Shown here one piece after another: positions 16,579 through 41,753 of a DNA stretch of 64,000 bases. Both the position numbers and the translations under genes were made by a program. Source of the stretch: a virus (Duplodnaviria; Caudoviricetes); the IMG/VR virus record IMGVR_UViG_3300012979_000004, positions 1 to 64,000 of that record; one strand, written 5' to 3'. Below the pieces are notes generated by a model. The model saw nothing but the letters and a program-made list of their open reading frames with translations. It made no database searches and was not told the DNA's origin. Within the stretch, counting starts at the first letter, position 1. The number at the start of each line of letters is the position of its first letter.

Positions 16579-16766
16579 ATATGTTTGCAGTACATATAGA
16601 CTGTATATCAGCCCTCGTATCGAGGGCGGGACTTGGTTTATCCCAACCAAGCGGATTAAGTGCAGCTTTACGCAGCAGATTACCAGTAACATCTCCAGTC
16701 TGCACTACGTCTTATGTGTATGTATCTAGAATATACTTCCAGCGGCATAAGAATCAGCTGTATTTG

Positions 16767-16844
16767 TGCGAAGAATGGGATTTGAACCCATAGACACCAA
16801 TGTTTGTAACATGGTTGCTGAATACCAATATCAGCTTTCTTCGC
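16767..16844 (-). tRNA. Atypical tRNA, anticodon ACA
   Basis: GCGAAGA/TCTTCGC acceptor stem, GCTGA/TCAGC D stem, anticodon loop TTACAAA, T arm ATGGG-TTCAAAT-CCCAT. Confidence 0.65.
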
Positions 16845-23272: not shown

Positions 23273-23317
23273 CAACGAGGTCCTGGGTAAGACTAAAAAC
23301 TGCCCAACTTTCAAATA

Positions 23318-23374
23318 AACTGTCGGGTTCACCAAGACCCCTGATGAGTCGCTGAAAATTGCGACGAAACAGTT
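23318..23374 (+). ncRNA. Type III hammerhead ribozyme 1 (predicted cleavage after GUC, 23324)
   Basis: AACTG-TC / GGGTT..GACCC / CTGATGA / GTCGC..GCGAC / GAAA-CAGTT. Confidence 0.9.
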
Positions 23375-23875
23375 AACATCCGTAGCCAATTATCAAGAAT
23401 TGTCTGTAGTAATAACAGTCAAGTTGTCGGTAAGATAAACTGAAACCGTCTAATTAATCCACTGATAAATAGGTGGACCATTTAAAAACCTCTAAAGAAT
23501 AAACCACTATATTCGTACTATACCCGTTTGTTAGTGGTTTATGTATGCACAAATTCATTATCATTATTATGTCGTACGGTGGTGTAAGTTTGGTCGCTTA
23601 TGCCACTTCTGAGTGACATTAAATTGTACACACATGCAGCAGATCCTAAATTAGCTGCATTGAGGGGCTAAAACAGTTTAGACCGACATTGAAAGACCAA
23701 TGTAAACTGTTGATGCCTGTGTGTACTAGTCTCGATTGCATGACGAAAAAATGAACTTGGTTAGTCATTAGGAGCAATCTAAATGCAATGCTGCGATGTT
23801 GGTCTATACTCAACAACAGCAAAGAAAACACCAAAGGAACGGTTTATGACCGTTCCTATTGGTTGTTTGATACAA

Positions 23876-29291: not shown

Positions 29292-29442
29292 TCACTGTAT
29301 TATTAACAATAGCCAAAAACGCTCTGTATTGCGATATATTTGACGGTATGAAGTAGCTACCACACCAGATAAGAAATCACCACACAGAGCCAAATAAAGG
29401 CTATTTAGAGCATAATCTGATCAATTATGTTTCTATCGAAGT

Positions 29443-29650
29443 TCTAGCTTGTGTGAAATAAACTATTCGGACGAGGGGGCAGTACCCTCGCGGTCCACAA
29501 AGAAAGAATGTAAGATTTTGGGCCGCAAATAGTGTTTGACGGGTAGTGGATATAAACACGTTAAGCTATTACATAAATCTAACTGGCAATTCTTATATTG
29601 CTGACTACACTAAGCTGGCAGCTTAATGGTTCTCTAATTGAGATTTAAGT
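29443..29650 (+). ncRNA. ssrA: Circularly permuted (two-piece) tmRNA; outer ends approximate
   Basis: Acceptor piece first (GAGGG-GGCAGTA-CCCTC-GCGGTCC-A, ends 29497), 22-nt spacer, then coding piece GGGCCGC (29520) giving G3-U70. Tag GGC..GCA GCT TAA at 29585-29626. Confidence 0.88.
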
Positions 29651-29676
29651 CACGTGCTAACTACGAAAGTGAGGAC

Positions 29677-29735
29677 GGAGATAACTAAGTTTAACGTTAA
29701 CTGGAGTTTTGGCGGTTCGAATCCGCCAATCTCCG
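29677..29735 (+). ncRNA. D-armless tRNA-like element directly after the tmRNA
   Basis: GGAGAT...TGGCGG-TTCGAAT-CCGCCA-ATCTCC-G. Confidence 0.6.
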
Positions 29736-30217: not shown

Positions 30218-30665
30218 TGTATTTTCCCAACAATTGATTGAACATTGGTGTAATGTGTACAAAGCACAACATCGATGTAAAGACGTACCAACGGAAATCA
30301 TACCATCTATAGAAGAAATATTGATGGAAAAACCAAGCATGATACCATGTGTCATGTATTGTAACGTGATTTCAACTTTAGACTATATTGCGGAAGAAGC
30401 AATTTATACATATTGTACTAAAAGTGAAGTAAGAAAAGTAGGGGAATGGATTCACAAGAATTTAGTAATAGAGATGCCAAACATGAAAAACCGTAAAACG
30501 GTTGATGTTAAGCTTCGAATTGCTGTAGACATGTTGAATAAACTAGAATATAATGGTATAATAACAAAAGATATAAACTTGTTTTACTTTCACAATATAG
30601 TAACAAATCTCTTAGATCTATGGGTATGTATACATTTGGCACAATATGACGAATTACCTTTCTAA
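30210..30665 (+). CDS. Hypothetical protein ending YDELPF
   Basis: 151-aa ORF. Confidence 0.7.
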   Translation: MYSVFSQQLIEHWCNVYKAQHRCKDVPTEIIPSIEEILMEKPSMIPCVMYCNVISTLDYIAEEAIYTYCTKSEVRKVGEWIHKNLVIEMPNMKNRKTVDVKLRIAVDMLNKLEYNGIITKDINLFYFHNIVTNLLDLWVCIHLAQYDELPF

Positions 30666-30672
30666 GAGATAT

Positions 30673-30757
30673 ACCAAGATGTCGGAATTGGTATACGAGA
30701 CAGACTTAAACTCTGTTGGTCATATCGACCGTGTGGGTTCGAGTCCCATTCTTGGTA
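30673..30757 (+). tRNA. tRNA-Leu(UAA)
   Basis: Cloverleaf with long variable arm; anticodon loop CT-TAA-AC. Confidence 0.9.
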
Positions 30758-30816
30758 CAGCGGCTAACATCCGTTACGCGAGTGACACGCTAATAACTGT
30801 TAAAAACTTAAAGCTT

Positions 30817-31377
30817 ATGAAAAACCCTAAAATTACTCCAGAAGAAATTAAGGTTATCAAAGCTGCACAAAATGGAAGCATACCAGCTTTCAATTGTATA
30901 TTTAAAAGATACAAATCGTTTGTAAGCAATATATTATATGGCTACATTAAAGATAAAGATGAAGCTGATGATATAACAAATATTGTATTTTTAAAAGTAT
31001 ACGATAAACTACAGAAATTCACAGCCTATGACTCTTTCGGAGGATGGTTGAGAATTATAGCTAATAATACAGCTGTAGATTATTTACGTAGAACAAAACA
31101 CACACCTATTGTGATTGATAATGTAGATGTCCGACTAACATCTTCAAGATCAATTAGTTCAGATGAAAACGACATTGTCAACCGTTTAACATATGAACAG
31201 ATACTCAAAGAGTTTAACGCCCTCTCTGAGCAAGCACAAAAAGTATGTGAATTGTTTTATATAGATAATATGACATCTGAAAAAATTAGCGAAGTGTTGC
31301 AAATACCAATAGGTACAGTGAAATCACATTTATCTAGGTCACGCAACAAATTACGTAAACAATTTAAAACAATTTAA
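30817..31377 (+). CDS. ECF-type sigma-70 factor
   Basis: Region 2 DEADDITNIVFLKVY...FGGWLRIIANNTAVDYLR; region 4 EKISEVLQIPIGTVKSHLSR. Confidence 0.9.
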   Translation: MKNPKITPEEIKVIKAAQNGSIPAFNCIFKRYKSFVSNILYGYIKDKDEADDITNIVFLKVYDKLQKFTAYDSFGGWLRIIANNTAVDYLRRTKHTPIVIDNVDVRLTSSRSISSDENDIVNRLTYEQILKEFNALSEQAQKVCELFYIDNMTSEKISEVLQIPIGTVKSHLSRSRNKLRKQFKTI

Positions 31378-31379
31378 CT

Positions 31380-31751
31380 ATGGTCTTAACTTGGTTAATA
31401 GTAGGTTTAGCCATCGCTGTAGCGATAGCACGAATCAACCAGAGCAACAAATTGTTCTGGGCTGCATTCACATCTTTGATGTTAGGAATTGCAGTAGGGT
31501 CGTTAATCAACCGAGTGGATCAGGATGAAGAGAGCCTCACACAAGTGTGCCCCACACAGATGGTAGTTGAAACACCAAGCTGTTATAGCTTTTTGGCAGA
31601 TGTTCCAACTACAACCCAGAGCTTTGTGCCAAACACTGTGAGTAAGGATTCCACACTTATAATAAGTGAGGTAACCTCTCTTCACAAAGAGCCATTTAAG
31701 AAAACTCTTACAGATCCACCAGATTGTAAAAACACACTAAAAACAGATTAA
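31380..31751 (+). CDS. Two-TM membrane protein following the sigma gene
   Basis: Two hydrophobic N-terminal helices. Confidence 0.7.
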   Translation: MVLTWLIVGLAIAVAIARINQSNKLFWAAFTSLMLGIAVGSLINRVDQDEESLTQVCPTQMVVETPSCYSFLADVPTTTQSFVPNTVSKDSTLIISEVTSLHKEPFKKTLTDPPDCKNTLKTD

Positions 31752-31789
31752 ACAAACATAGTATTAACTTTTATAAATCCGTAATCAAT

Positions 31790-33169
31790 ATGGGTAAGAA
31801 TAAAACAAAAGGAGCAGTACCTCCAGCACCAAAAGAAGAAAAACCAAAAGTAATCGAGCCAGAAGTAATTGAGACTAAGAAGACTCGTCCAATTAACGTA
31901 ATTGATGCTGACAAGTTGGCAGAAATGAAGCCTATGCCAGGATTGAGTCCAGACAGCATGGTAAACGTAATAAACGGGTTGGATCGTCATTTTATGCAGC
32001 CAAGTGCAGCAGAGAAACTTGGTCTTACACAGGAAACTGTAGACAAGATAAACTCATTCTCAGCACACGCATGGGTAGCAATCGCAACAACAGAAGTGAT
32101 GTTTGGAACAAGCCAGTTTGCACAGACTATTAGACTGTCTCAACTACCAGGTGTTACAGAAGCTGCTAGAAGCATGGGTATCATTATCGACCAGAAAGCT
32201 CTTCCGGCACCGAATGAAGAAGGCCTCATTCAGATTCCTTCCACAGCAATAAAGCCTTCAAAAGAAGCAAAAGAAGCTTTGGAAAAGGAGCATGCAATTC
32301 TTGTAAAGAAGCCAGAAGTAGATCCAAATAGTATTAAAGACGAAAATGGATTGAAGGATGCATTATCATTCATCATGGCAGATCGTGCTAACACAATCGA
32401 CAAGATTGCAGACAGTATCGCATTCTACAAGTCTTATCTGAAGATTCAGGCAGAAAAGTCTGAAAACGCAGAAGAAGAAAAGAAGCGCATTGACGAAATG
32501 AACAATGTTGAAACTCTCAACAAGATTCGTAACATTGTAAAGGAATGTCCTCTTGTCTTATCAGGAATCGGTCGTTCAATGAGCACCTTTGTTGGGAGTT
32601 CCAAAAGTCCTGTTTCAGCATTCTGTATGTTGCGTAACTCCGCTAAGAATCGAAAGACAGGCGAGTATCGTCTTACAGATCGAGAAATTGCAGATTATAC
32701 GCAGATTCTTGTTTCTTGGGCAAATGATTTGAAGATTGCTGACTATAAGAAGCATATTGAAAATCATGAAAAGAACCTTAAGGAGCTTTCTAAGAACAAG
32801 AAAGATAACGCTAAAGGTATCGAAGATGTAAAAGAAAAGATTGAATCTTGTAAAGCTTCTATTAAGCACCTTGAAGAGGTTACAGAAACAATTTTCAATT
32901 CGTCTTCAGATTTCGTAGACGCTCTTCTTGAAAAGTACGCAGAAAAGGACCGACTTGCTACAACAACGTTCAAACACGTACTCGAAGGTTACTATGCTGA
33001 CGTAGATGTAGAAAAGACACCTATCGATACAATCAAGCATAATGTAAAACAGCGTGCAGGTATCATTACAAATTTGTTCCGCAATCCAAGTACACCTATT
33101 ATGGAGTACAGCGAGGCAAACCTTGTAGATGTAACTAAAGTAAAGGAGGACGAAGACTCAAAAAAATAA
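31790..33169 (+). CDS. Hypothetical protein (459 aa)
   Basis: Long intact ORF with coiled-coil segments. Confidence 0.85.
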   Translation: MGKNKTKGAVPPAPKEEKPKVIEPEVIETKKTRPINVIDADKLAEMKPMPGLSPDSMVNVINGLDRHFMQPSAAEKLGLTQETVDKINSFSAHAWVAIATTEVMFGTSQFAQTIRLSQLPGVTEAARSMGIIIDQKALPAPNEEGLIQIPSTAIKPSKEAKEALEKEHAILVKKPEVDPNSIKDENGLKDALSFIMADRANTIDKIADSIAFYKSYLKIQAEKSENAEEEKKRIDEMNNVETLNKIRNIVKECPLVLSGIGRSMSTFVGSSKSPVSAFCMLRNSAKNRKTGEYRLTDREIADYTQILVSWANDLKIADYKKHIENHEKNLKELSKNKKDNAKGIEDVKEKIESCKASIKHLEEVTETIFNSSSDFVDALLEKYAEKDRLATTTFKHVLEGYYADVDVEKTPIDTIKHNVKQRAGIITNLFRNPSTPIMEYSEANLVDVTKVKEDEDSKK

Positions 33170-33260
33170 CCACCACACATAAGCGTTCGTTGTTAAACAG
33201 AATAATCACAAAAGTGAAGACTATGTTTTAACTTATGTGTGGATAAAACGCATAATCAAT

Positions 33261-33731
33261 ATGGCAAAGAAAATAACAACGATCATTTGCTGCATTGCAT
33301 TTACGATTGGAGGATATTTTATATCTTCTATGAATAACGCCAGCTTAACAATCAATAATGCAAAGACAGCAACAGCTGCACCACTGCCACAGGCAGTGAT
33401 ACAGTATCCGAAAGATCTTTTATTAGGTCATACGAACGATGTGGGTCTTATTACAGTCCGTGACACAATCCGTGACACAATTCCACTAGAAATACGTCAT
33501 GATACAATAACAAAGACAAAATACGTAACAAAGTGGAAAACAAAAATAGAATATGTACGAGATACATGTTTTATTGAACAACCAATGGACACCCTATGTG
33601 ATTCGTCACATATGTGTAATGTTGTAGACACAGTTCCAAAAATACAACCAATAGACACTGTGTATGTAACAAAACCAACGTTGGTTATTCCAATACTAGA
33701 ATCTAATGATTCAACAACCGTATCGCTTTAA
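33261..33731 (+). CDS. Secreted or membrane-anchored protein with DT-rich repeats
   Basis: Signal-like N-terminus; VRDTIRDTI, HDTI, DTVYV. Confidence 0.7.
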   Translation: MAKKITTIICCIAFTIGGYFISSMNNASLTINNAKTATAAPLPQAVIQYPKDLLLGHTNDVGLITVRDTIRDTIPLEIRHDTITKTKYVTKWKTKIEYVRDTCFIEQPMDTLCDSSHMCNVVDTVPKIQPIDTVYVTKPTLVIPILESNDSTTVSL

Positions 33732-35850
33732 AGGGTCTCATTAGCCCTTGATACAAATCGCTATCTTATTGTAGTTCGACTCTGCACACCCCACAACTTA
33801 TAGCACGGCGTAATATTCTTTACGCTGTGCTATCTTTAACAAGGGGTGCCGGGAAGATAGCACCTTATACTTGATCCGAGAATATGTATATCTCCACTGG
33901 AGACGAATAGCTTGAAAATAGAGCTACAAAAGGTAGGATGGAAGACACTGAGGCGTGAAGAACCTCTTTGTATTAGGGAGAGCGTTGTATACAAACCCTA
34001 TTCTGATATATGAGAACCGTCTGGTGATATATTCAAGAGAAGACGCATAAGACTCAAAAGGAGCAAAACTGTAAACCGTATCGGACATGTTATATCGATG
34101 TGCATAGATGTAATATAACGAAACACGAGCTGAAACATACTTAAACCAAGACCCAAGTAGAGAAGGATGGAAGGAGTCCATTCACATATCTGAATAGAGG
34201 AACAGTTACCAAAATAAGTATGATGTACAAATTATAGCTGTATCACAGTGTTTGCGAGGTCCAAACTCGTTATAAAGGTGAGACATAAGTTGTGAATAAA
34301 CATTAATGCAGATTCAGATTAGTTCTAACTGAATGCGTACCGTAACTACGTAGCCTAGGTAAGTCCAAACTGGTGCAAATCCAGTGCCTCTCGTTGCCAC
34401 GCGAAGGGGAGTAAGAGGGTAATACGGCTGATTTAATGTGAATAGCAGACCGCCAGGCTTTACTCGTTTATGCGGTTATATAAAAGTAAATGAGTAGGAA
34501 AACGATGCAGGTTTTCATGCGGAACGAGCCCGCGTTCAAAGGCTGATTCAAATACAGCAAATTAGGTAAGCGTAATCTTGTTGTATACGGTAGATTGGAC
34601 AAAAACCAATCGCCCTTAGGTGACCACTATACAGTCAAAAACAATAATTATTTATGCGGATATTATTTGTCTCCACACCCGGTGGATAACACAACTATAT
34701 CTACATTGCAGATTTAGTAAGTACCTTTGAAGGGTTTCAATTATAACCATACATTATGTCCTCTATGGAGTAGTAAGCCAGCATGATATAATTGGTGTTA
34801 TGATTTTTAACCAAAAATACTTCAAATGAAAGCGAAGATTGAATAAAGAATTTAAAAACATGTTTAACAAAATTAGGTGTCCCCTGATAGGGAAAAACTT
34901 ACGTTGTAAGTAAGCAGTACTGAAGTCAGAAACCTGAGTGCCAACCGTAACTCTGAAAAAATTAGACAGAATGCGAAACGAAATGAAGCGTGAGCCAGCA
35001 AGCAGCGTGGATGGAAAGCATAGAGTCGTATACGTCAAAATCGATGGGCAGCTAATCGTAGCCATTAGACGCAGTGCTTGTAGCGTATGCAGGTAATCAC
35101 TATCGCCTGTCTCGCGATGTGTGATAAGCAAGATTAGTGGGTGACAAGAAAATAGACGTATGGGTTGAATTCCCGAGTGTTCGTGCACTATAAACAAAGA
35201 GATGTTTTAGTAAGGTTTATCTCATGACACGAAATAAAACCCCCGTAAGGTCGCAAACAATAGTTGAGAAGAGTTCTGGAGCTCCTAGATCGTTCGATAA
35301 TGAAGCGTACTCCTCACGCAAGCACCCAAAAGCATAAAAAGTTAGGAAACGAGGCCCGTAAGCCAGCGCAATAAACTTACGGCACCAGAGTAAACTGCAA
35401 ATCATTTTAGGAAGATACGTCTTTTGTAAACGGGAAAATATCAAAGATATATCAACCAAAGACATACATTTTACATAATATAGGATATCTCAGCTAGTGA
35501 ACCCTCCACGAATCCTGAATCATTAGAGCACTTAGTGGATAAACTATATCGTTTTTAAATTATAAAAAACAAGTTCATGGATCTTAGTATTCGAGTATAC
35601 ATTTCGACATTCAAAGCTTTAAAAAACGCCATAAATTACGGGCCAGGATGATCTTACCAGTAGATCCCCGCTATATTGTCTATACGATGTAGCTATTTTG
35701 TGACGAAAGCGTGTTAACCATTAGAACAACAATCGAAAACATAATAAGTTAAATGAACAAACTATAACATTTATATATACACGCAGAGTGTATTTCAATT
35801 ATAAGTTTAATCTATCGTTGGTGGAATCAACCACGATATCAAAAAGGATA
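33732..35850 (+). ncRNA. Candidate very large structured ncRNA(s)
   Basis: 2.1 kb without a credible gene; many hairpins, T-loop-like motifs and long-range complementary segments. Confidence 0.6.
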
Positions 35851-35855
35851 GAAAA

Positions 35856-36497
35856 ATGGAAAAAGTAGATTTAAGTCGCATAACAGCAGATAACCGCCCA
35901 GAACTTCGTCTGTTGGGTGGAACATTAGGTACAAAGTATTTCAAGGCAGAAGCACGTGCTGCAATTCTCAATTTTGAGGAACGAAAGGTTGAAGTAGAGC
36001 GCAATGGTAACATTGACATGATTCTCAACCGAACACCACGACGCTTCTATGTCAAGGATTATGATGTACAGAGCGTAGCTCTTGTAACTGATGCGCTCGG
36101 TAGTGCAAAAGTAGTCCTCAACCAGGGTAAGGATGAGGCAGTGTCTATTCCAATCTCTAGCGATGGAAAGACATTCAGCAATGTAACAGATGACGCTCTC
36201 GGAAAGGCTCTTCGTGGAGATCAGAGTATTGTATTCAGCAACGCAAAGAAGCTTGTTGATCAGGTCAATACACTCAACCGCGATGAGAAGGAGCGTTTGC
36301 TCAAGATTGCAGAAGAGATTAAGAAGTCTATTCAGCAGATTGACTCTGCTATCGCAAGCAACGAAAAGAAGGTATCTGATTACTATAAGGAACTCGCAAA
36401 GAGTACTTCTACAGACGATTCTACAACAGTAGTGTTGAATGTAGATGGTAGTTCAGAAACACTGAAGTCTGACGAAATCATTGTAGTAAATAGCTAA
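35856..36497 (+). CDS. Hypothetical protein
   Basis: 213-aa ORF. Confidence 0.8.
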   Translation: MEKVDLSRITADNRPELRLLGGTLGTKYFKAEARAAILNFEERKVEVERNGNIDMILNRTPRRFYVKDYDVQSVALVTDALGSAKVVLNQGKDEAVSIPISSDGKTFSNVTDDALGKALRGDQSIVFSNAKKLVDQVNTLNRDEKERLLKIAEEIKKSIQQIDSAIASNEKKVSDYYKELAKSTSTDDSTTVVLNVDGSSETLKSDEIIVVNS

Positions 36498-36499
36498 CT

Positions 36500-37090
36500 A
36501 TGAGCAAATCGATCAGTGATCGTAGCAAGCTTGTAATTCAGTTATTACTCACAGACAGTAAAATAGCAGAGAGAGTGTTCGAAAACGTAGACGACAAGGA
36601 AAAGTACAAGATTTGTACTATCAAGAACAGCGGAGCTGTAATCCTTGGTAAGACCAGTTGTCGGTTTTGGAATCAACTGTTAAACTGTCAAGATAAGATA
36701 CCGTTTGAGAGCTTTGCTCTAAAAGTATGGGATTCTTTGGTAGATGCTTCAAGTGGTGTAAACAATACCGCTATAATGAAGGGTTTATCTCAAGAAATCA
36801 TCATGAAGTCTGTTCGTGAACATGAATATGACTGGGTTGTAGGGCGTCTTTATGACTGTTGGCGACATGTGGCGCAGAAAAGTGAAGGTTATCAACAAAA
36901 CGTAGCTCCTGCGGGAGCACCGGTTAATCACCAAGGCGTAGAGAAGGTAACAATCACAGATAATGGGCCACGAAAAATCGTCCTCAATATAAACGGTGTA
37001 GAAAAGACAATTCCTATTTTAGATAGCATTGGAGATACATTCAACATAGGCCTTGATTTTGGTATTACTGGAGTGCATCGAATTTACTAA
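36500..37090 (+). CDS. Hypothetical protein
   Basis: 196-aa ORF. Confidence 0.8.
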   Translation: MSKSISDRSKLVIQLLLTDSKIAERVFENVDDKEKYKICTIKNSGAVILGKTSCRFWNQLLNCQDKIPFESFALKVWDSLVDASSGVNNTAIMKGLSQEIIMKSVREHEYDWVVGRLYDCWRHVAQKSEGYQQNVAPAGAPVNHQGVEKVTITDNGPRKIVLNINGVEKTIPILDSIGDTFNIGLDFGITGVHRIY

Positions 37091-37191
37091 ATCTGAGGAT
37101 TTAAGACAAATTCCTGAGGGACATGCGTCTATTTGATAAGATGTATAATAGTAAAATCAACATAAGCTGTTGAATTTCTTCAACACGACAT

Positions 37192-37239
37192 AAAACAAAA
37201 GGTAAAGTTGCGTGCGCGCAATCTAGCCTTTTGTTTTTG
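37192..37239 (+). terminator. Intrinsic terminator-like hairpin
   Basis: AAAACAAAAGG...CCTTTTGTTTTT inverted repeat. Confidence 0.5.
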
Positions 37240-37327
37240 CTTATTGATATGTGAATATCATTTAGCAACTGGCAAATGACTACTCGAATTCAACTATAAA
37301 TTTATGTTTAATTTTAATCAAATCTAT

Positions 37328-37876
37328 ATGAATAAGAAGACATCAATCAAGTTGAACTCAAGTAACATTATTAACATTCGTAAGAACCTTGACACAGAAA
37401 TAACAAAAGCATGGAAGACAATTCGCAATGAAAATGTAATGTCATTCAAGGAAATTAAAGCAGGTCTTGGTTCTGGTAAAGATCTGAAAGCTTTGTATAA
37501 TTATATCACACAGCTTCAGGAAAAACGAATTAAAATTAAGGGTATGCTCATGTATCTAAATATGGGTATTACTACATTTAATTTTGATGAATTTGTTAAA
37601 ACAAATAACTATAATATCTTTGCTGCATGTGAGGCTAAGGAAGCAATTACTCAGCTTAGCTTAATACCAACTTTGAATCCAACCGAAAAGGCAAAGAAGG
37701 GTAAGAACAACATGACTAAGAAAGAAACGTTTACAAGTGCCAAGATTGCTTCATTAAAGAAGAGCTTACAGCTCGAAGCAAATAAGCACGATGCAGCGCT
37801 CGAAAAGTTTAACAAAGAAACAGATATCGATATCACAGGTCTTGAAGAAGATTTCAAGCTTGAACTTACACTATAA
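37328..37876 (+). CDS. Hypothetical coiled-coil protein
   Basis: ORF starting MNKKTSIKL. Confidence 0.8.
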   Translation: MNKKTSIKLNSSNIINIRKNLDTEITKAWKTIRNENVMSFKEIKAGLGSGKDLKALYNYITQLQEKRIKIKGMLMYLNMGITTFNFDEFVKTNNYNIFAACEAKEAITQLSLIPTLNPTEKAKKGKNNMTKKETFTSAKIASLKKSLQLEANKHDAALEKFNKETDIDITGLEEDFKLELTL

Positions 37877-37980
37877 TATCGATATAGTTTGAAGCATGAG
37901 GGCTTTTATGACGGTCGGTTCGTCACAAACTACAAAATACATATTTTCCCACAGTATTAATTCTCTTAAACATAATCAAT

Positions 37981-38523
37981 ATGAAAACAAAGAAGAAGGT
38001 AGATGTAGCAGCAAAACTTGCAGCTCGTCCAAAAAAATATAACCTTATGGTTGGATACGACGAAATACTTGAAACAGAAATCCAAGCTATATTAAAAGAA
38101 AACAAGATAAAGACACAGATCACGACCGCTTGTTACTTTTATATCAAGGGTTTGACAAAAGAAGAAGCAGAACGTATCGGAAACCTGGTGAAAGATGTGA
38201 AATTTGAATTTACATCTCCAAAAACAAACAAATCTAAGGTTTATAAGTTACGATATATATCAATACTACTTGCACCAGACCTGGCTCTTGGTAAAATTAA
38301 ACGAATGCACAAGAAGAAGACATCTGGAACAATACACAGTGCTGGTACAAAAACTACTACATATCAGAAGAAAGTAAAATCCCGAGCTAAGAAGGCGACA
38401 TTGGCTATTCTAAAAGCTGAGAAAAATAAAAATAATTTAAAGAAAGCTATATCTAAGAAAAGCGAATTACATAAAACAGTAAAGCCGATACAGCAGAAAA
38501 TTAACTTTAAGAAAGCAGCGTAG
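37981..38523 (+). CDS. Lys-rich basic protein ending KKAA; TAG stop
   Basis: 180-aa ORF. Confidence 0.75.
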   Translation: MKTKKKVDVAAKLAARPKKYNLMVGYDEILETEIQAILKENKIKTQITTACYFYIKGLTKEEAERIGNLVKDVKFEFTSPKTNKSKVYKLRYISILLAPDLALGKIKRMHKKKTSGTIHSAGTKTTTYQKKVKSRAKKATLAILKAEKNKNNLKKAISKKSELHKTVKPIQQKINFKKAA

Positions 38524-38525
38524 CC

Positions 38526-39074
38526 ATGGGAAAGAAGACCGTAAATAAAAAGCTTAAAAAGAAGCTGAATCGTATACGAAATCAGAAAAACTGTATTCCA
38601 CCTAAAATACAAGCCAATGTTTGGGATATAGATAACGATGGAGTAGAAGCATATCGTAACACACGTCCGTACCAAGAACATGTACCAATAATGGAACGGA
38701 AAGGAAAGTTAAATAAAAAACCTTGGTATATTCTTACTAAAGAAGAACATATCACAATTGACAAATTACGTAAATCTACAAAGATGACACGTGATGATTA
38801 CATTAAAGGGTACATAAAACAAAAAATGGATAAATGGGAGTTAAAACATAAAAAACCACAAGAAAACGATTTATTCTACAATCAAGAACTCCCAAAATGG
38901 ACAAGTGACCGTGAACAACATCACGATAACATAATGTCTATTATATCTAAAAAGTATATAAAACGTTACACAAAACCGTTAATAAATTATGTATTCGACT
39001 CTAAGCATACGTTAAAAAATAATGTAACTAAAAAGCAGGTGAGCACCCGATATGGACTGGGAATAGCTGCATAA
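38526..39074 (+). CDS. Basic protein ending GIAA
   Basis: 182-aa ORF. Confidence 0.75.
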   Translation: MGKKTVNKKLKKKLNRIRNQKNCIPPKIQANVWDIDNDGVEAYRNTRPYQEHVPIMERKGKLNKKPWYILTKEEHITIDKLRKSTKMTRDDYIKGYIKQKMDKWELKHKKPQENDLFYNQELPKWTSDREQHHDNIMSIISKKYIKRYTKPLINYVFDSKHTLKNNVTKKQVSTRYGLGIAA

Positions 39075-39875: not shown

Positions 39876-41753
39876 ATGTGTATACGAAATTGTAGGATAG
39901 ACGTCTATGATATAGAAGTTTTTCCAAATGTATTTCACTGTTGTACAAAAAATACCGAAACTGGAGAAATAAGTAAATTTGAAATATCTGAAAGAAAAAA
40001 TCAATTAGATGAATTGGTATCATATTTTACCAATAAAGAATCAAAGATAATCTGCGGATACAACAATCATCATTATGACGATGTTATAATAAATTATATA
40101 ATAGATTATCATTCTAAACTAATTAGATTGCCATACTGGAAGATATGTAAATCTTTATTCGGTTTATCACAAACTATTGTAACAGCAGAAGATGGAGACG
40201 TTGACAGATTTAAAAAATGGAAGTATGCGCATTACTTCTATTCTATAGATTTGTTAACTATGCAATTTAGTTCTAAATTACGAGTAGGTCTAAAAGAACT
40301 TCAATTAACCATGCATTATAAAAATGTGCAGGAATATGAAGGTGATTTTGAAAACAATCTTCCTACAAATGAAATAGACAAAATGATCGCATATAATATA
40401 AACGATGTAAATTCTACAACAGAGCTATTAAACATTCTTAAAAAAGATATAGAATTACGTTTGTTTATATACGATGAATATCACATTGACGCATTGTCGA
40501 TGGATAGTGTTAAGTTTGGAGAAAAACTACTAGCAGAACGTTATTGTGAAAGCGCACGCATACCAATGCGATTGTTAAAGACAATGCGTTCACCAATGGA
40601 CAATATCCCTTTAAAAGATGTTATATTTCCATTTATAGAATATAAAAATCCAAAATTAAAAGACGTTCTCGAAGATATGAAAAGGCAAATAGTATCTTCA
40701 AAAGAACGCAAAGGCTACGAGAAGAAGTTTGTTCTCTCGAACGTGGTGTATTCAATCGGAGTTGGTGGTATACATTCAATACACGATCCAGAAATATTCC
40801 ATCCGGGACCTGACGAGTATATCGGACACAGTGATGTGGCGTCGATGTATCCGAGCTTACTGATAAAGTATGAACTTACTCCCAGACACTTAGGTAAAAC
40901 ATTTTTGAAAGTCTATTCTAAACTATATGAAGAACGAATAGAAGCAAAACATAGCGGACAGAAACTTAAGAATCTTGCCTTAAAATTGACTCTTAACTCT
41001 GTTACGGGGAAAATGCAAGAAGAAACAAGTTGGATGTACGACCCATTTAACGTTTTCAAAATACGTATTAACGGACAGTTGATACTATTGATGTTGGTGG
41101 ATCGTTTGCTGGAACTTAATTGTAAGATTGTACAAGTAAATACAGATGGTGTTGTTTATATCGCTAAGAAAACCGCTTCTGAGGCCATTCAGGGGGCTAT
41201 TTCAGAAGTAGAGCGTATAACACAACTTGTTTTTGAAAGCGACAACTATGAGGCGTTTTATCAATACGCAATCAACGATTATTTTGGAGTTGTTGAGGGT
41301 TATTCGCAATCTAATGACCCTAAATTGATAGAAAAGAAAGGAATGTTTATCACTGAAACAAAAATAGGTAAAGGACTAGCACCGGTTATTATACCTAAAG
41401 CAGTGATTAATTATTTCTTAACAAAACAGCCTGTATCTGAATATATCAGACAGCAGACCGATATAAAAGATTTCTTAATGGCACAAAGAGTCAATAAGAA
41501 ATTCAAAGTCCGACACGGCAATCAATTTGTACAACGTATAAATCGATATTATGCTAGCACAAACGGTTATTCACTTTATAAAGTAGATTCAGACGGTAGT
41601 GAAACAAACATGTTAACTAAATCTGGAGTAACAATACTTAATAAAATGGACGACTTAAATATACAAGACAGGCATATAAATTATAACTATTATATAAGCG
41701 AAGCTAATAAGATAGTATATGATTTAGCTTGTCAACAATTAACTCTATTTTAA
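39876..41753 (+). CDS. DNA polymerase family B
   Basis: Exonuclease motif YDIEVF; polymerase motifs DVASMYPS, KLTLNSVTG, VNTDG. Confidence 0.92.
   Translation: MCIRNCRIDVYDIEVFPNVFHCCTKNTETGEISKFEISERKNQLDELVSYFTNKESKIICGYNNHHYDDVIINYIIDYHSKLIRLPYWKICKSLFGLSQTIVTAEDGDVDRFKKWKYAHYFYSIDLLTMQFSSKLRVGLKELQLTMHYKNVQEYEGDFENNLPTNEIDKMIAYNINDVNSTTELLNILKKDIELRLFIYDEYHIDALSMDSVKFGEKLLAERYCESARIPMRLLKTMRSPMDNIPLKDVIFPFIEYKNPKLKDVLEDMKRQIVSSKERKGYEKKFVLSNVVYSIGVGGIHSIHDPEIFHPGPDEYIGHSDVASMYPSLLIKYELTPRHLGKTFLKVYSKLYEERIEAKHSGQKLKNLALKLTLNSVTGKMQEETSWMYDPFNVFKIRINGQLILLMLVDRLLELNCKIVQVNTDGVVYIAKKTASEAIQGAISEVERITQLVFESDNYEAFYQYAINDYFGVVEGYSQSNDPKLIEKKGMFITETKIGKGLAPVIIPKAVINYFLTKQPVSEYIRQQTDIKDFLMAQRVNKKFKVRHGNQFVQRINRYYASTNGYSLYKVDSDGSETNMLTKSGVTILNKMDDLNIQDRHINYNYYISEANKIVYDLACQQLTLF

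Follow-up and report, generated by a model that had tools for sequence, protein, structure and literature searches.

The 64,000-nucleotide (nt) stretch analysed here (the window; IMG/VR virus record IMGVR_UViG_3300012979_000004) is the first 64 kilobases (kb) of a complete phage of 99,927 bp with direct terminal repeats, and it contains, between two protein-coding genes, a gap of 2124 nt. We consider it likely that this gap is a structured non-coding RNA locus, very large and made up of several modules, on the + strand, of a family that is undescribed in Rfam or in the literature searched and that is kept by phages of the family Suoliviridae (the crAss-like 'delta' phages), which are abundant in the gut. 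Within it, conserved unpaired blocks alternate with helices, about 30 in number, whose two sides change in a compensatory manner, and T-loop hairpins are present. A preliminary description, made from the letters of the window alone, had proposed "one or two very large structured RNAs" in a 2.1-kb region devoid of credible genes, and this proposal is supported by gap-wide covariation, by the constancy of the gap in size and place, and by a bias towards G-U pairs that points to the + strand. The absence of a credible gene likewise proved to be real, as set out first.

The gap is non-protein-coding. It is delimited by the stop codon of the upstream gene (33729-33731) and the ATG of the downstream gene (35856), and the longest open reading frames (ORFs) inside it amount to 52 amino acids (aa) on the + strand and 144 aa, from a TTG start, on the - strand. 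The idea that the region codes for protein after all, through genes that have decayed or been recoded or through numerous small ORFs, draws on the frequent reassignment of TAG or TGA in delta-group crAss-like phages (PMC7886860) and on the short ORFs that some annotators have called in homologous gaps. However, neither reassignment (TAG read as Q or TGA as W) opens a long frame in the gap, and ORFs of at least 60 aa vary in length, strand and position from one of 30 representative homologues to the next, three of the 30 having none. Cross-genome BLASTP comparisons between gap ORFs return short stretches only, mirroring the nucleotide conservation, and that conservation takes the form of blocks with paired compensatory changes and without a codon period. 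We therefore regard a coding origin of the gap as scarcely credible.

The locus is widespread among relatives of the source phage. At least 107 IMG/VR loci, every one of them retrieved by a single pattern, carry the conserved 17-mer TGAGAACCGTYTGGNGA; nearly all have a + strand ORF-free gap of 2.0-2.5 kb, and about eight are chance matches within ORFs. Among these matches listed, the distance between the 17-mer and the 5' edge of the gap is 190-385 nt, and at least 73 gaps are complete, forming at least 30 clusters at 95% identity. Gap size is 2025-2223 nt in eight Oafivirinae-level records, 2125-2147 nt in Loutivirinae (cr53_1, cr4_1) and 2456-2514 nt in Boorivirinae (cr50_1, cr55_1, cr10_1). 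The more distant clusters were assigned to Loutivirinae (cr53_1, cr4_1 and others) and Boorivirinae (cr50_1, cr55_1, cr1_1, cr10_1), and the five distant records inspected (cr53_1, cr4_1, cr50_1, cr55_1, cr10_1) show similar synteny. Judged from these assignments, the RNA locus spans three Suoliviridae subfamilies, namely Oafivirinae, Loutivirinae and Boorivirinae, and appears so far to be confined to Suoliviridae. All sampled members devote about 2% of their genome to it, and in the Oafivirinae-level set the gap has a mean pairwise identity of 56%, versus 46% for adjacent coding DNA of the same genomes.

The strongest evidence for a structured RNA comes from covariation. We scanned an alignment of 19 genomes (~1,400 variable columns) for mutual information with average-product correction, assuming no structure, and found Watson-Crick compatibility in 12 of the 13 highest-scoring column pairs; these 12 show 3-5 pair types each and are paired in 15-19 of the 19 sequences. 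These top pairs include 34010/34028, 34523/34548 and 34618/34628, with 35041/35149 and 35811/35852 having the second- and third-highest values. When helices were listed as stacks of at least three pairs kept in at least 84% of sequences, 31 helices with at least six double-sided changes were obtained in the gap (13 of them with at least 12), versus none in the upstream and none in the downstream coding DNA treated by the same alignment method. Segment-wise consensus folds give covarying helices from 33874 to 35853, and the best-supported modules (Table 1) span about 970, 480 and 280 nt. Two alignments were compared with controls. In alignment A8 (34238-34410), made by plain MAFFT and unfitted to any structure, 90.4% of cells are paired versus 67.0 +/- 1.6% after shuffling, and 106 cells are double-sided versus 31 +/- 5, with 0 of 500 shuffles as high; controls with slid partners are 28-45% paired. 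Alignment A6 (34874-34958, model R1, 23 loci including Loutivirinae) has 95.5% paired cells versus 78.4% shuffled and 50 double-sided cells versus 12.6 (0 of 500), with 26-60% pairing in slid controls. Default MAFFT under-reports helices at the most variable hairpins. Taken generically, the gap thus behaves as a structured RNA, with compensatory pairs beyond those in shuffled, slid and same-genome coding controls.

The same helices carry information on the strand. With helices set by strict Watson-Crick pairs alone, a procedure that favours neither strand, the non-Watson-Crick cells comprise 68 G-U and 33 A-C (p = 6e-4), divided by module into 34 vs 12 (33860-34700), 23 vs 11 (34860-35340) and 9 vs 10 (35575-35855). 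Since G-U exceeds A-C, the + strand, which is also that of all neighbouring genes, would be the folded strand; this assignment is clear for module 1 and probable for module 2. The strand preference also bears on the possibility that the locus acts as DNA, for instance as a replication origin, a packaging site or a transcription-factor array, its helices being DNA hairpins or chance. The position just upstream of the replication module, with the DNA polymerase B gene at 39876-41753, would suit such an element. However, a DNA element accounts neither for compensatory changes that maintain about 30 helices nor for a one-strand preference for G-U over A-C, and we found no iterons, tandem repeats or enriched repeated 7-mer. 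Cumulative GC skew climbs steadily across the region, and because there is neither a GC-skew turning point nor a tandem repeat array, nothing suggests a replication origin. Overall, a DNA-level element seems very unlikely.

A number of observations weigh against the locus being a structured RNA or, more specifically, a single one. Because the sequences are related, the shuffle controls overstate significance, which the slid-partner and flanking-gene controls answer only partly. The invariance of a 17-nt loop in module 1 (see below) is partly a retrieval effect, because a single 17-mer fetched all loci. The strand signal is marginal in module 2 (p = 0.058) and absent in module 3, and none of the listed public sequencing runs that contain the stretch is on record as RNA. 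Finally, modules 1 and 2 are not linked by any covariation-supported helix, and conservation is weak at 34700-34860 and 35340-35575, so that there may be several RNAs rather than one. A candidate connection between modules 1 and 2, UAUCG at 34079 with CGAUA at 35295, is pairable yet invariant. We give about even odds to a single ~2-kb molecule and to two or three processed modules.

Another explanation is that the locus acts in cis, as a long structured leader or spacer of an operon mRNA whose sole task would be to control the stability or translation of the downstream genes. A promoter scan of the locus returned promoter-like sites at chance level only, and the sole terminator-like site on the + strand of the gap (35670-35693) has a U-run that is not kept in relatives. 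Because there is no conserved promoter or terminator inside the locus, which runs from a stop codon to the next ribosome-binding site, it is probably co-transcribed with its neighbours as part of one operon, and would afterwards be either retained as a structured spacer or excised as a stable RNA. That the locus abuts both genes in this way is what a leader or spacer would look like, as is the strongly covarying terminal hairpin over the ribosome-binding region of the downstream 213-aa gene. The 3' arm of this hairpin (GAUAGAA, 35847-35853) stops 2 nt short of the ATG and overlaps the purine-rich tract at which ribosomes would bind. On the other hand, 2 kb of RNA with about 30 conserved helices, near-invariant unpaired blocks and T-loops far exceeds the needs of known leaders, and conservation is higher in the RNA than in the genes under its supposed control. 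We consider a purely regulatory leader or spacer improbable, albeit the least improbable of the alternatives weighed here.

The locus was compared with known RNA families. Running cmscan with all 4227 Rfam 15 families gave no match in the gap at E<=10, the only two hits within 33400-36100 being chance matches to unrelated families (16-18 bits), and eight homologous gaps from three subfamilies gave no Rfam match at E<=1. Because of these negative searches of the window gap and the eight homologous gaps, no membership in GOLLD, ROOL, OLE, raiA, the group I and II introns or any other curated Rfam family is detectable for the locus, and we found no description of this RNA in the literature searched. 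The preliminary description had placed it in, or near, the ROOL/GOLLD class and had suggested a likeness of its second domain to ROOL; the former claim reduces to a resemblance of kind, and for the latter we found no support. GOLLD resembles the locus in being encoded by phages or prophages, in its very large size, intricate fold and unassigned function, and in its many conserved unpaired blocks and pseudoknot candidates. It differs in measuring roughly 800 nt (PMC12286853) versus about 2.1 kb here, and in its setting within tRNA islands, whereas the present locus lies inside a protein-coding operon between conserved genes without a family. GOLLD and ROOL are often found beside tRNA genes; here, there is a tRNA-Leu about 3 kb upstream of the gap in the window, with protein genes between, and in three relatives tRNA genes lie 0.7-2.9 kb downstream of the gap, beyond two to four genes (L005, 6337-6409; L117, 5896-5969; L002, 8967-9053). 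ROOL shares with the locus an origin in rumen and gut phages, large size, multiple pseudoknot candidates and the absence of a known protein partner or function (PMC12286853), but the 659-nt ROOL studied by cryo-electron microscopy (cryo-EM) is about three times shorter (PMC12286853) and has different helices, and there is no Rfam match. GOLLD and ROOL form RNA-only closed cages of 14 and 8 copies, respectively (PMC12286853).

Could the locus still be a highly diverged GOLLD or ROOL, or consist of one or more ORF-less self-splicing introns? Its presence in a phage, large size, ornate character and T-loops would be in keeping with this, and many group I introns are present in delta-group crAss-like phages (PMC7886860). 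The search results above nevertheless extend to the GOLLD, ROOL, OLE, raiA and group I/II models, and with 2124 nt here and 2.0-2.5 kb in relatives, as opposed to about 600-800 nt, the locus exceeds GOLLD or ROOL in length by a factor of 2.5-3 (lengths of these two RNAs according to PMC12286853). As for introns, the flanking ORFs are separate genes with their own stop or start in every relative. Both variants of this explanation are in our view highly improbable.

The nearest biological precedent within Crassvirales is provided by a pair of long non-coding RNAs (lncRNAs) of the crAss-like Cellulophaga phage phi14:2, which likewise come from long gene-free DNA in the early region. These abundant early lncRNAs originate from long intergenic regions and persist through infection (bioRxiv 10.1101/2020.03.07.982082); their transcription runs the same way as that of the adjoining genes, and they outnumber most mRNAs and have no assigned function (bioRxiv 10.1101/2020.03.07.982082). 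The gene-free stretch of phi14:2 measures about 1.7 kb (NC_021806, 2905-4601), and the earlier ORF calls there were all withdrawn in 2020. The phage belongs to Steigviridae, the genome position is different, and the phi14:2 RNAs are known by expression, whereas the present locus is known from sequence covariation. Model R1 gave no match at E<=1 to the whole phi14:2 and crAss001 records, an empty answer that does not prove absence, and an nhmmer profile had no match in the first 9 kb of phi14:2. The non-coding RNA arrays of UG27 reverse transcriptases are also long structured non-coding stretches of Bacteroidota gut phages (PMC9226505; bioRxiv 10.64898/2026.09.22.753630). We rejected such an array as a candidate: the nine neighbouring ORFs (30646-39074) are without a Pfam reverse-transcriptase match, and there are no tandem or dispersed repeat units.

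Regarding function, it is possible, by analogy with GOLLD and ROOL, that the locus yields a stable architectural RNA made during infection, which would act by its tertiary structure and whose last hairpin would also gate downstream translation; we put this forward tentatively. Such an RNA would be made with an early or middle operon and, in line with proposals for GOLLD and ROOL, might form an assembly consisting of RNA only or associate with factors of the phage or the host, while the 3' terminal hairpin would gate translation of the 213-aa gene. For a sponge with repeated protein-binding motifs, no 7-mer is enriched beyond A+T-rich shuffles and no tandem repeats are present. A bolder and in our opinion doubtful proposal is that the whole 2.1 kb is one autonomous RNA with a defined three-dimensional fold that works as a machine, whether as a ribozyme, as an assembly of RNA alone or as the core of a new RNA-protein particle with the neighbouring proteins, and that is used against, or for protection from, Bacteroidales hosts. 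One autonomous RNA would be the largest ornate phage RNA known to us, 2.5-3 times GOLLD; with it, the sizes covered by such RNAs would reach far past GOLLD, and it would offer a new target for cryo-EM and provide a handle on RNA-mediated action of uncultured gut phages on their hosts. The public DNA runs that contain the stretch come from 11 studies and are mostly bovine gut metagenomes, DNA contigs from such runs extend across the locus, and phages of this group are also found in cattle, pigs and primates. One low-depth contig of 232 nt, identical to 34973-35204 in module 2 and the only long piece recovered from an 8-kb stretch, comes from a run whose RNA status is guessed and is a weak hint at most, as contigs cannot show expression, ends or strand.

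Table 1 Features of the RNA locus and its adjacent genes (window coordinates).
Feature	Position	Strand	Description
Conserved 459-aa neighbour gene	31790..33169	+	Function not assigned
164-aa ORF	33237..33731	+	Immediately upstream of the RNA locus; syntenic with a 113-190 aa ORF in relatives
Whole non-coding locus	33732..35855	+	2124 nt, from the stop of the 164-aa ORF to the start of the 213-aa ORF
5' hairpin	33733..33747	+	GGG-UCUCAUUAG-CCC; begins 2 nt past the upstream stop codon
Window-specific insertion	33760..33862	+	~105 nt; three-way junction fold; UUCGACU T-loop hairpin 33770-33786; 14-bp hairpin 33800-33833
Module 1a	33868..34035	+	Helices 33874-77/33936-39, 33891-94/33900-03, 33949-53/33963-67, 33975-78/33996-99, 34007-11/34027-31
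Module 1b	34238..34410	+	Five hairpins: 34243-46/34278-81 around 34254-58/34266-70; 34306-10/34327-31; 34332-39/34347-52; T-loop 34368-72/34380-84
CCAGGC	34453..34458	+	Candidate pseudoknot partner of GUCUGG (34019-34024) in the 17-nt loop
Module 1c	34460..34700	+	Helices 34462-69/34488-95, 34499-503/34511-15, 34527-30/34541-44, 34562-64/34573-75, 34621-25/34633-37
First linker	34700..34873	+	A+T-rich, weakly conserved; separates module 1 from module 2
Module 2a (model R1)	34874..34958	+	Helix 34884-88/34925-29 around hairpin 34898-902/34910-14, then GAGUGCCAACCG hairpin
Module 2b	34988..35200	+	Hairpin 34988-92/35002-05; helices 35030-34/35157-61, 35051-53/35136-38, 35097-106/35114-24; T-loop hairpin 35162-64/35173-75
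Module 2c	35244..35320	+	Helices 35249-52/35288-91, 35305-08/35316-19 around conserved GUUCGAUAAUGAAGCG
Second weakly conserved stretch	35340..35575	+	Without a covariation-supported helix
Module 3 hairpins	35575..35710	+	35587-90/35597-600; 35640-42/35667-69 with 35650-54/35662-66; 35670-75/35688-93
Terminal hairpin (end of module 3)	35810..35853	+	34 double-sided changes over 7 pairs
213-aa ORF	35856..36497	+	Immediately downstream; the terminal hairpin covers its start region

The anatomy of the locus is summarised in Table 1. The loop of the 5' hairpin is conserved in alignments (TCTCATTAG) and its stem covaries (GGG/CCC, GAGG/CCTC, CGGG/CCCG, TGG/CCA, GTAGA/TCTAC). The insertion that follows is missing from the relatives L109, L106, L042 and Dulem virus 42, and the segment that includes it (33732-33870, 139 nt) folds at -49.4 kcal/mol, with z = -5.7 versus shuffles. 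In the predicted fold the insertion resembles an expansion segment of a large RNA, and it marks a place where additions are tolerated. The helices of module 1a have, in the order of the table, 9, 18, 28, 8 and 32 double-sided changes, and those of module 1c have 11-23 each. The last stem of module 1a closes the 17-nt loop UGAGAACCGUCUGGUGA (34011-34027), which is near-invariant in homologues, whereas the stem itself differs in almost every lineage (AUAU/AUAU, CCA/UGG, CUUG/CAAG and others). GUCUGG of this loop and CCAGGC are pairable in 16-19 of 19 sequences, both sides hardly varying, and UGAGA of the loop could pair with the 5' hairpin loop, again with invariant partners; both pseudoknots remain candidates because their partners are invariant.

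Towards the 3' end, the first linker has a single covarying hairpin (34753-60/34785-92, 27 double-sided changes) and ends in the conserved block CATGTTTAACAAAA (34859-34872). This block was considered as a repeated promoter motif and rejected as such: the window holds one copy at up to one mismatch, and looser matches are at chance level. In module 2, UGUCCCC (34878-84) may pair with GGG-UGACA (35139-46), module 2b contains the conserved blocks GGGUGACAAG and UUCGUGCACUAUAAA, and the two helices of module 2c have 13 and 8 double-sided changes. The module 3 hairpins have 30, 19 and 21. A 19-nt motif, CTGARTGCNWACCGTAACT, occurs in copies that are 84% identical in module 1 (34329-34347) and module 2 (34934-34952), and the other short motifs AGGATGGAAG, AATGAAGCGT and GGCTGATT are each present twice. 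These recurring motifs may be the trace of an internal duplication or represent a recurrent tertiary motif.

Among the individual structures proposed in the preliminary description, the local hairpins hold up and the long-range helices do not. Two T-loop-like hairpins proved real, with covariation in both: ACTGG-TGCAAAT-CCAGT (34369-34385; e.g. CTGT-TCGATTC-AG in other phages) and GGG-TTGAATT-CCC (35162-35174; GGG/CCC, GAG/CTC, GTG/CAC); the 14-bp hairpin and the T-loop hairpin of the insertion are also present and fold locally. The helices thought to close the first domain over ~500 nt, such as CACAACTTAT at 33792 with ATAAGTTGTG at 34285 (repeat I5), do exist as complementary strings, but their pairing is unconserved. 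Their positions are pairable in only 2-14 of 19 sequences, counts that are weak by themselves as the window is misaligned in the 5' segment, and the 5' arms of several of them lie within the window-specific insertion. About two perfect 10-mer inverted repeats are expected by chance in 2.1 kb (2124^2/2 x 4^-10), and three of at least 10 nt are seen (I3, I4, I5). The helices assigned to the second domain, with closure over ~1 kb (GGCTGA/TCAGCT, GGGTG/CACCC and AGACGTAT/ATACGTCT), pair in only 4-17 of 19 sequences with no consistent compensation. The two-domain picture is roughly right, with domain boundaries that depend on other helices than those first suggested.

By DNA similarity, the window groups with crAss-like phages of the family Suoliviridae, subfamily Oafivirinae (cr273_1, cr272_1, cr131_1, cr130_1, cr7_1, cr124_1 and a Bohxovirus), and with Dulem virus 42, which is unclassified. 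The locus sits between a sigma-factor block and the replication genes, in a gene order that is common to all eight similar phage records: sigma factor, an ORF of ~125-140 aa, one of ~460-500 aa, one of ~115-190 aa, the gap, and an ORF of ~200 aa, followed in most of the eight by a further ORF of ~190 aa. The 459-aa protein encoded upstream has no Pfam or PHROG match and 122 homologues, none of them named; in the phage collection it occurs in Suoliviridae only, at 21-34% identity. Its AlphaFold model is all-alpha (predicted local distance difference test score, pLDDT, 79.6), and a Foldseek comparison of this model with the PDB gave no match at E<=0.001. The 213-aa ORF has a counterpart of 178-213 aa in most relatives and of 400 aa in cr53_1. 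It has no family match, and a search for related loci with its protein confirmed no relatives. For both ORFs adjacent to the gap, ESM Atlas look-ups produced weak leads only (feature scores of 0.91 for DUF6808, in the 164-aa ORF, and 0.85 for YonD_N).

Several other RNA features were observed in the window. The tRNA-Leu(UAA) gene at 30673-30758 overlaps the opening 113 nt (30646-30758) of the sigma-factor ORF as listed (30646-31377). Because the Pfam sigma-70 region 2 match begins only at residue 86 of this ORF, the true start codon of the sigma factor is probably located downstream of the tRNA. A 79-nt tRNA on the - strand (16766-16844; Rfam tRNA, 36.2 bits) is called tRNA-Cys by ARAGORN with the odd anticodon ACA, and may be a misread or a non-standard or suppressor tRNA. 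A type III hammerhead ribozyme is found at 23317-23375, with 49.7 bits against an Rfam gathering score of 48.5. Finally, the phage encodes a circularly permuted (two-piece) transfer-messenger RNA (tmRNA) at 29408-29717 (Rfam tmRNA_permuted, 58.1 bits), for which ARAGORN gives the tag peptide GNSYIADYTKLAA.

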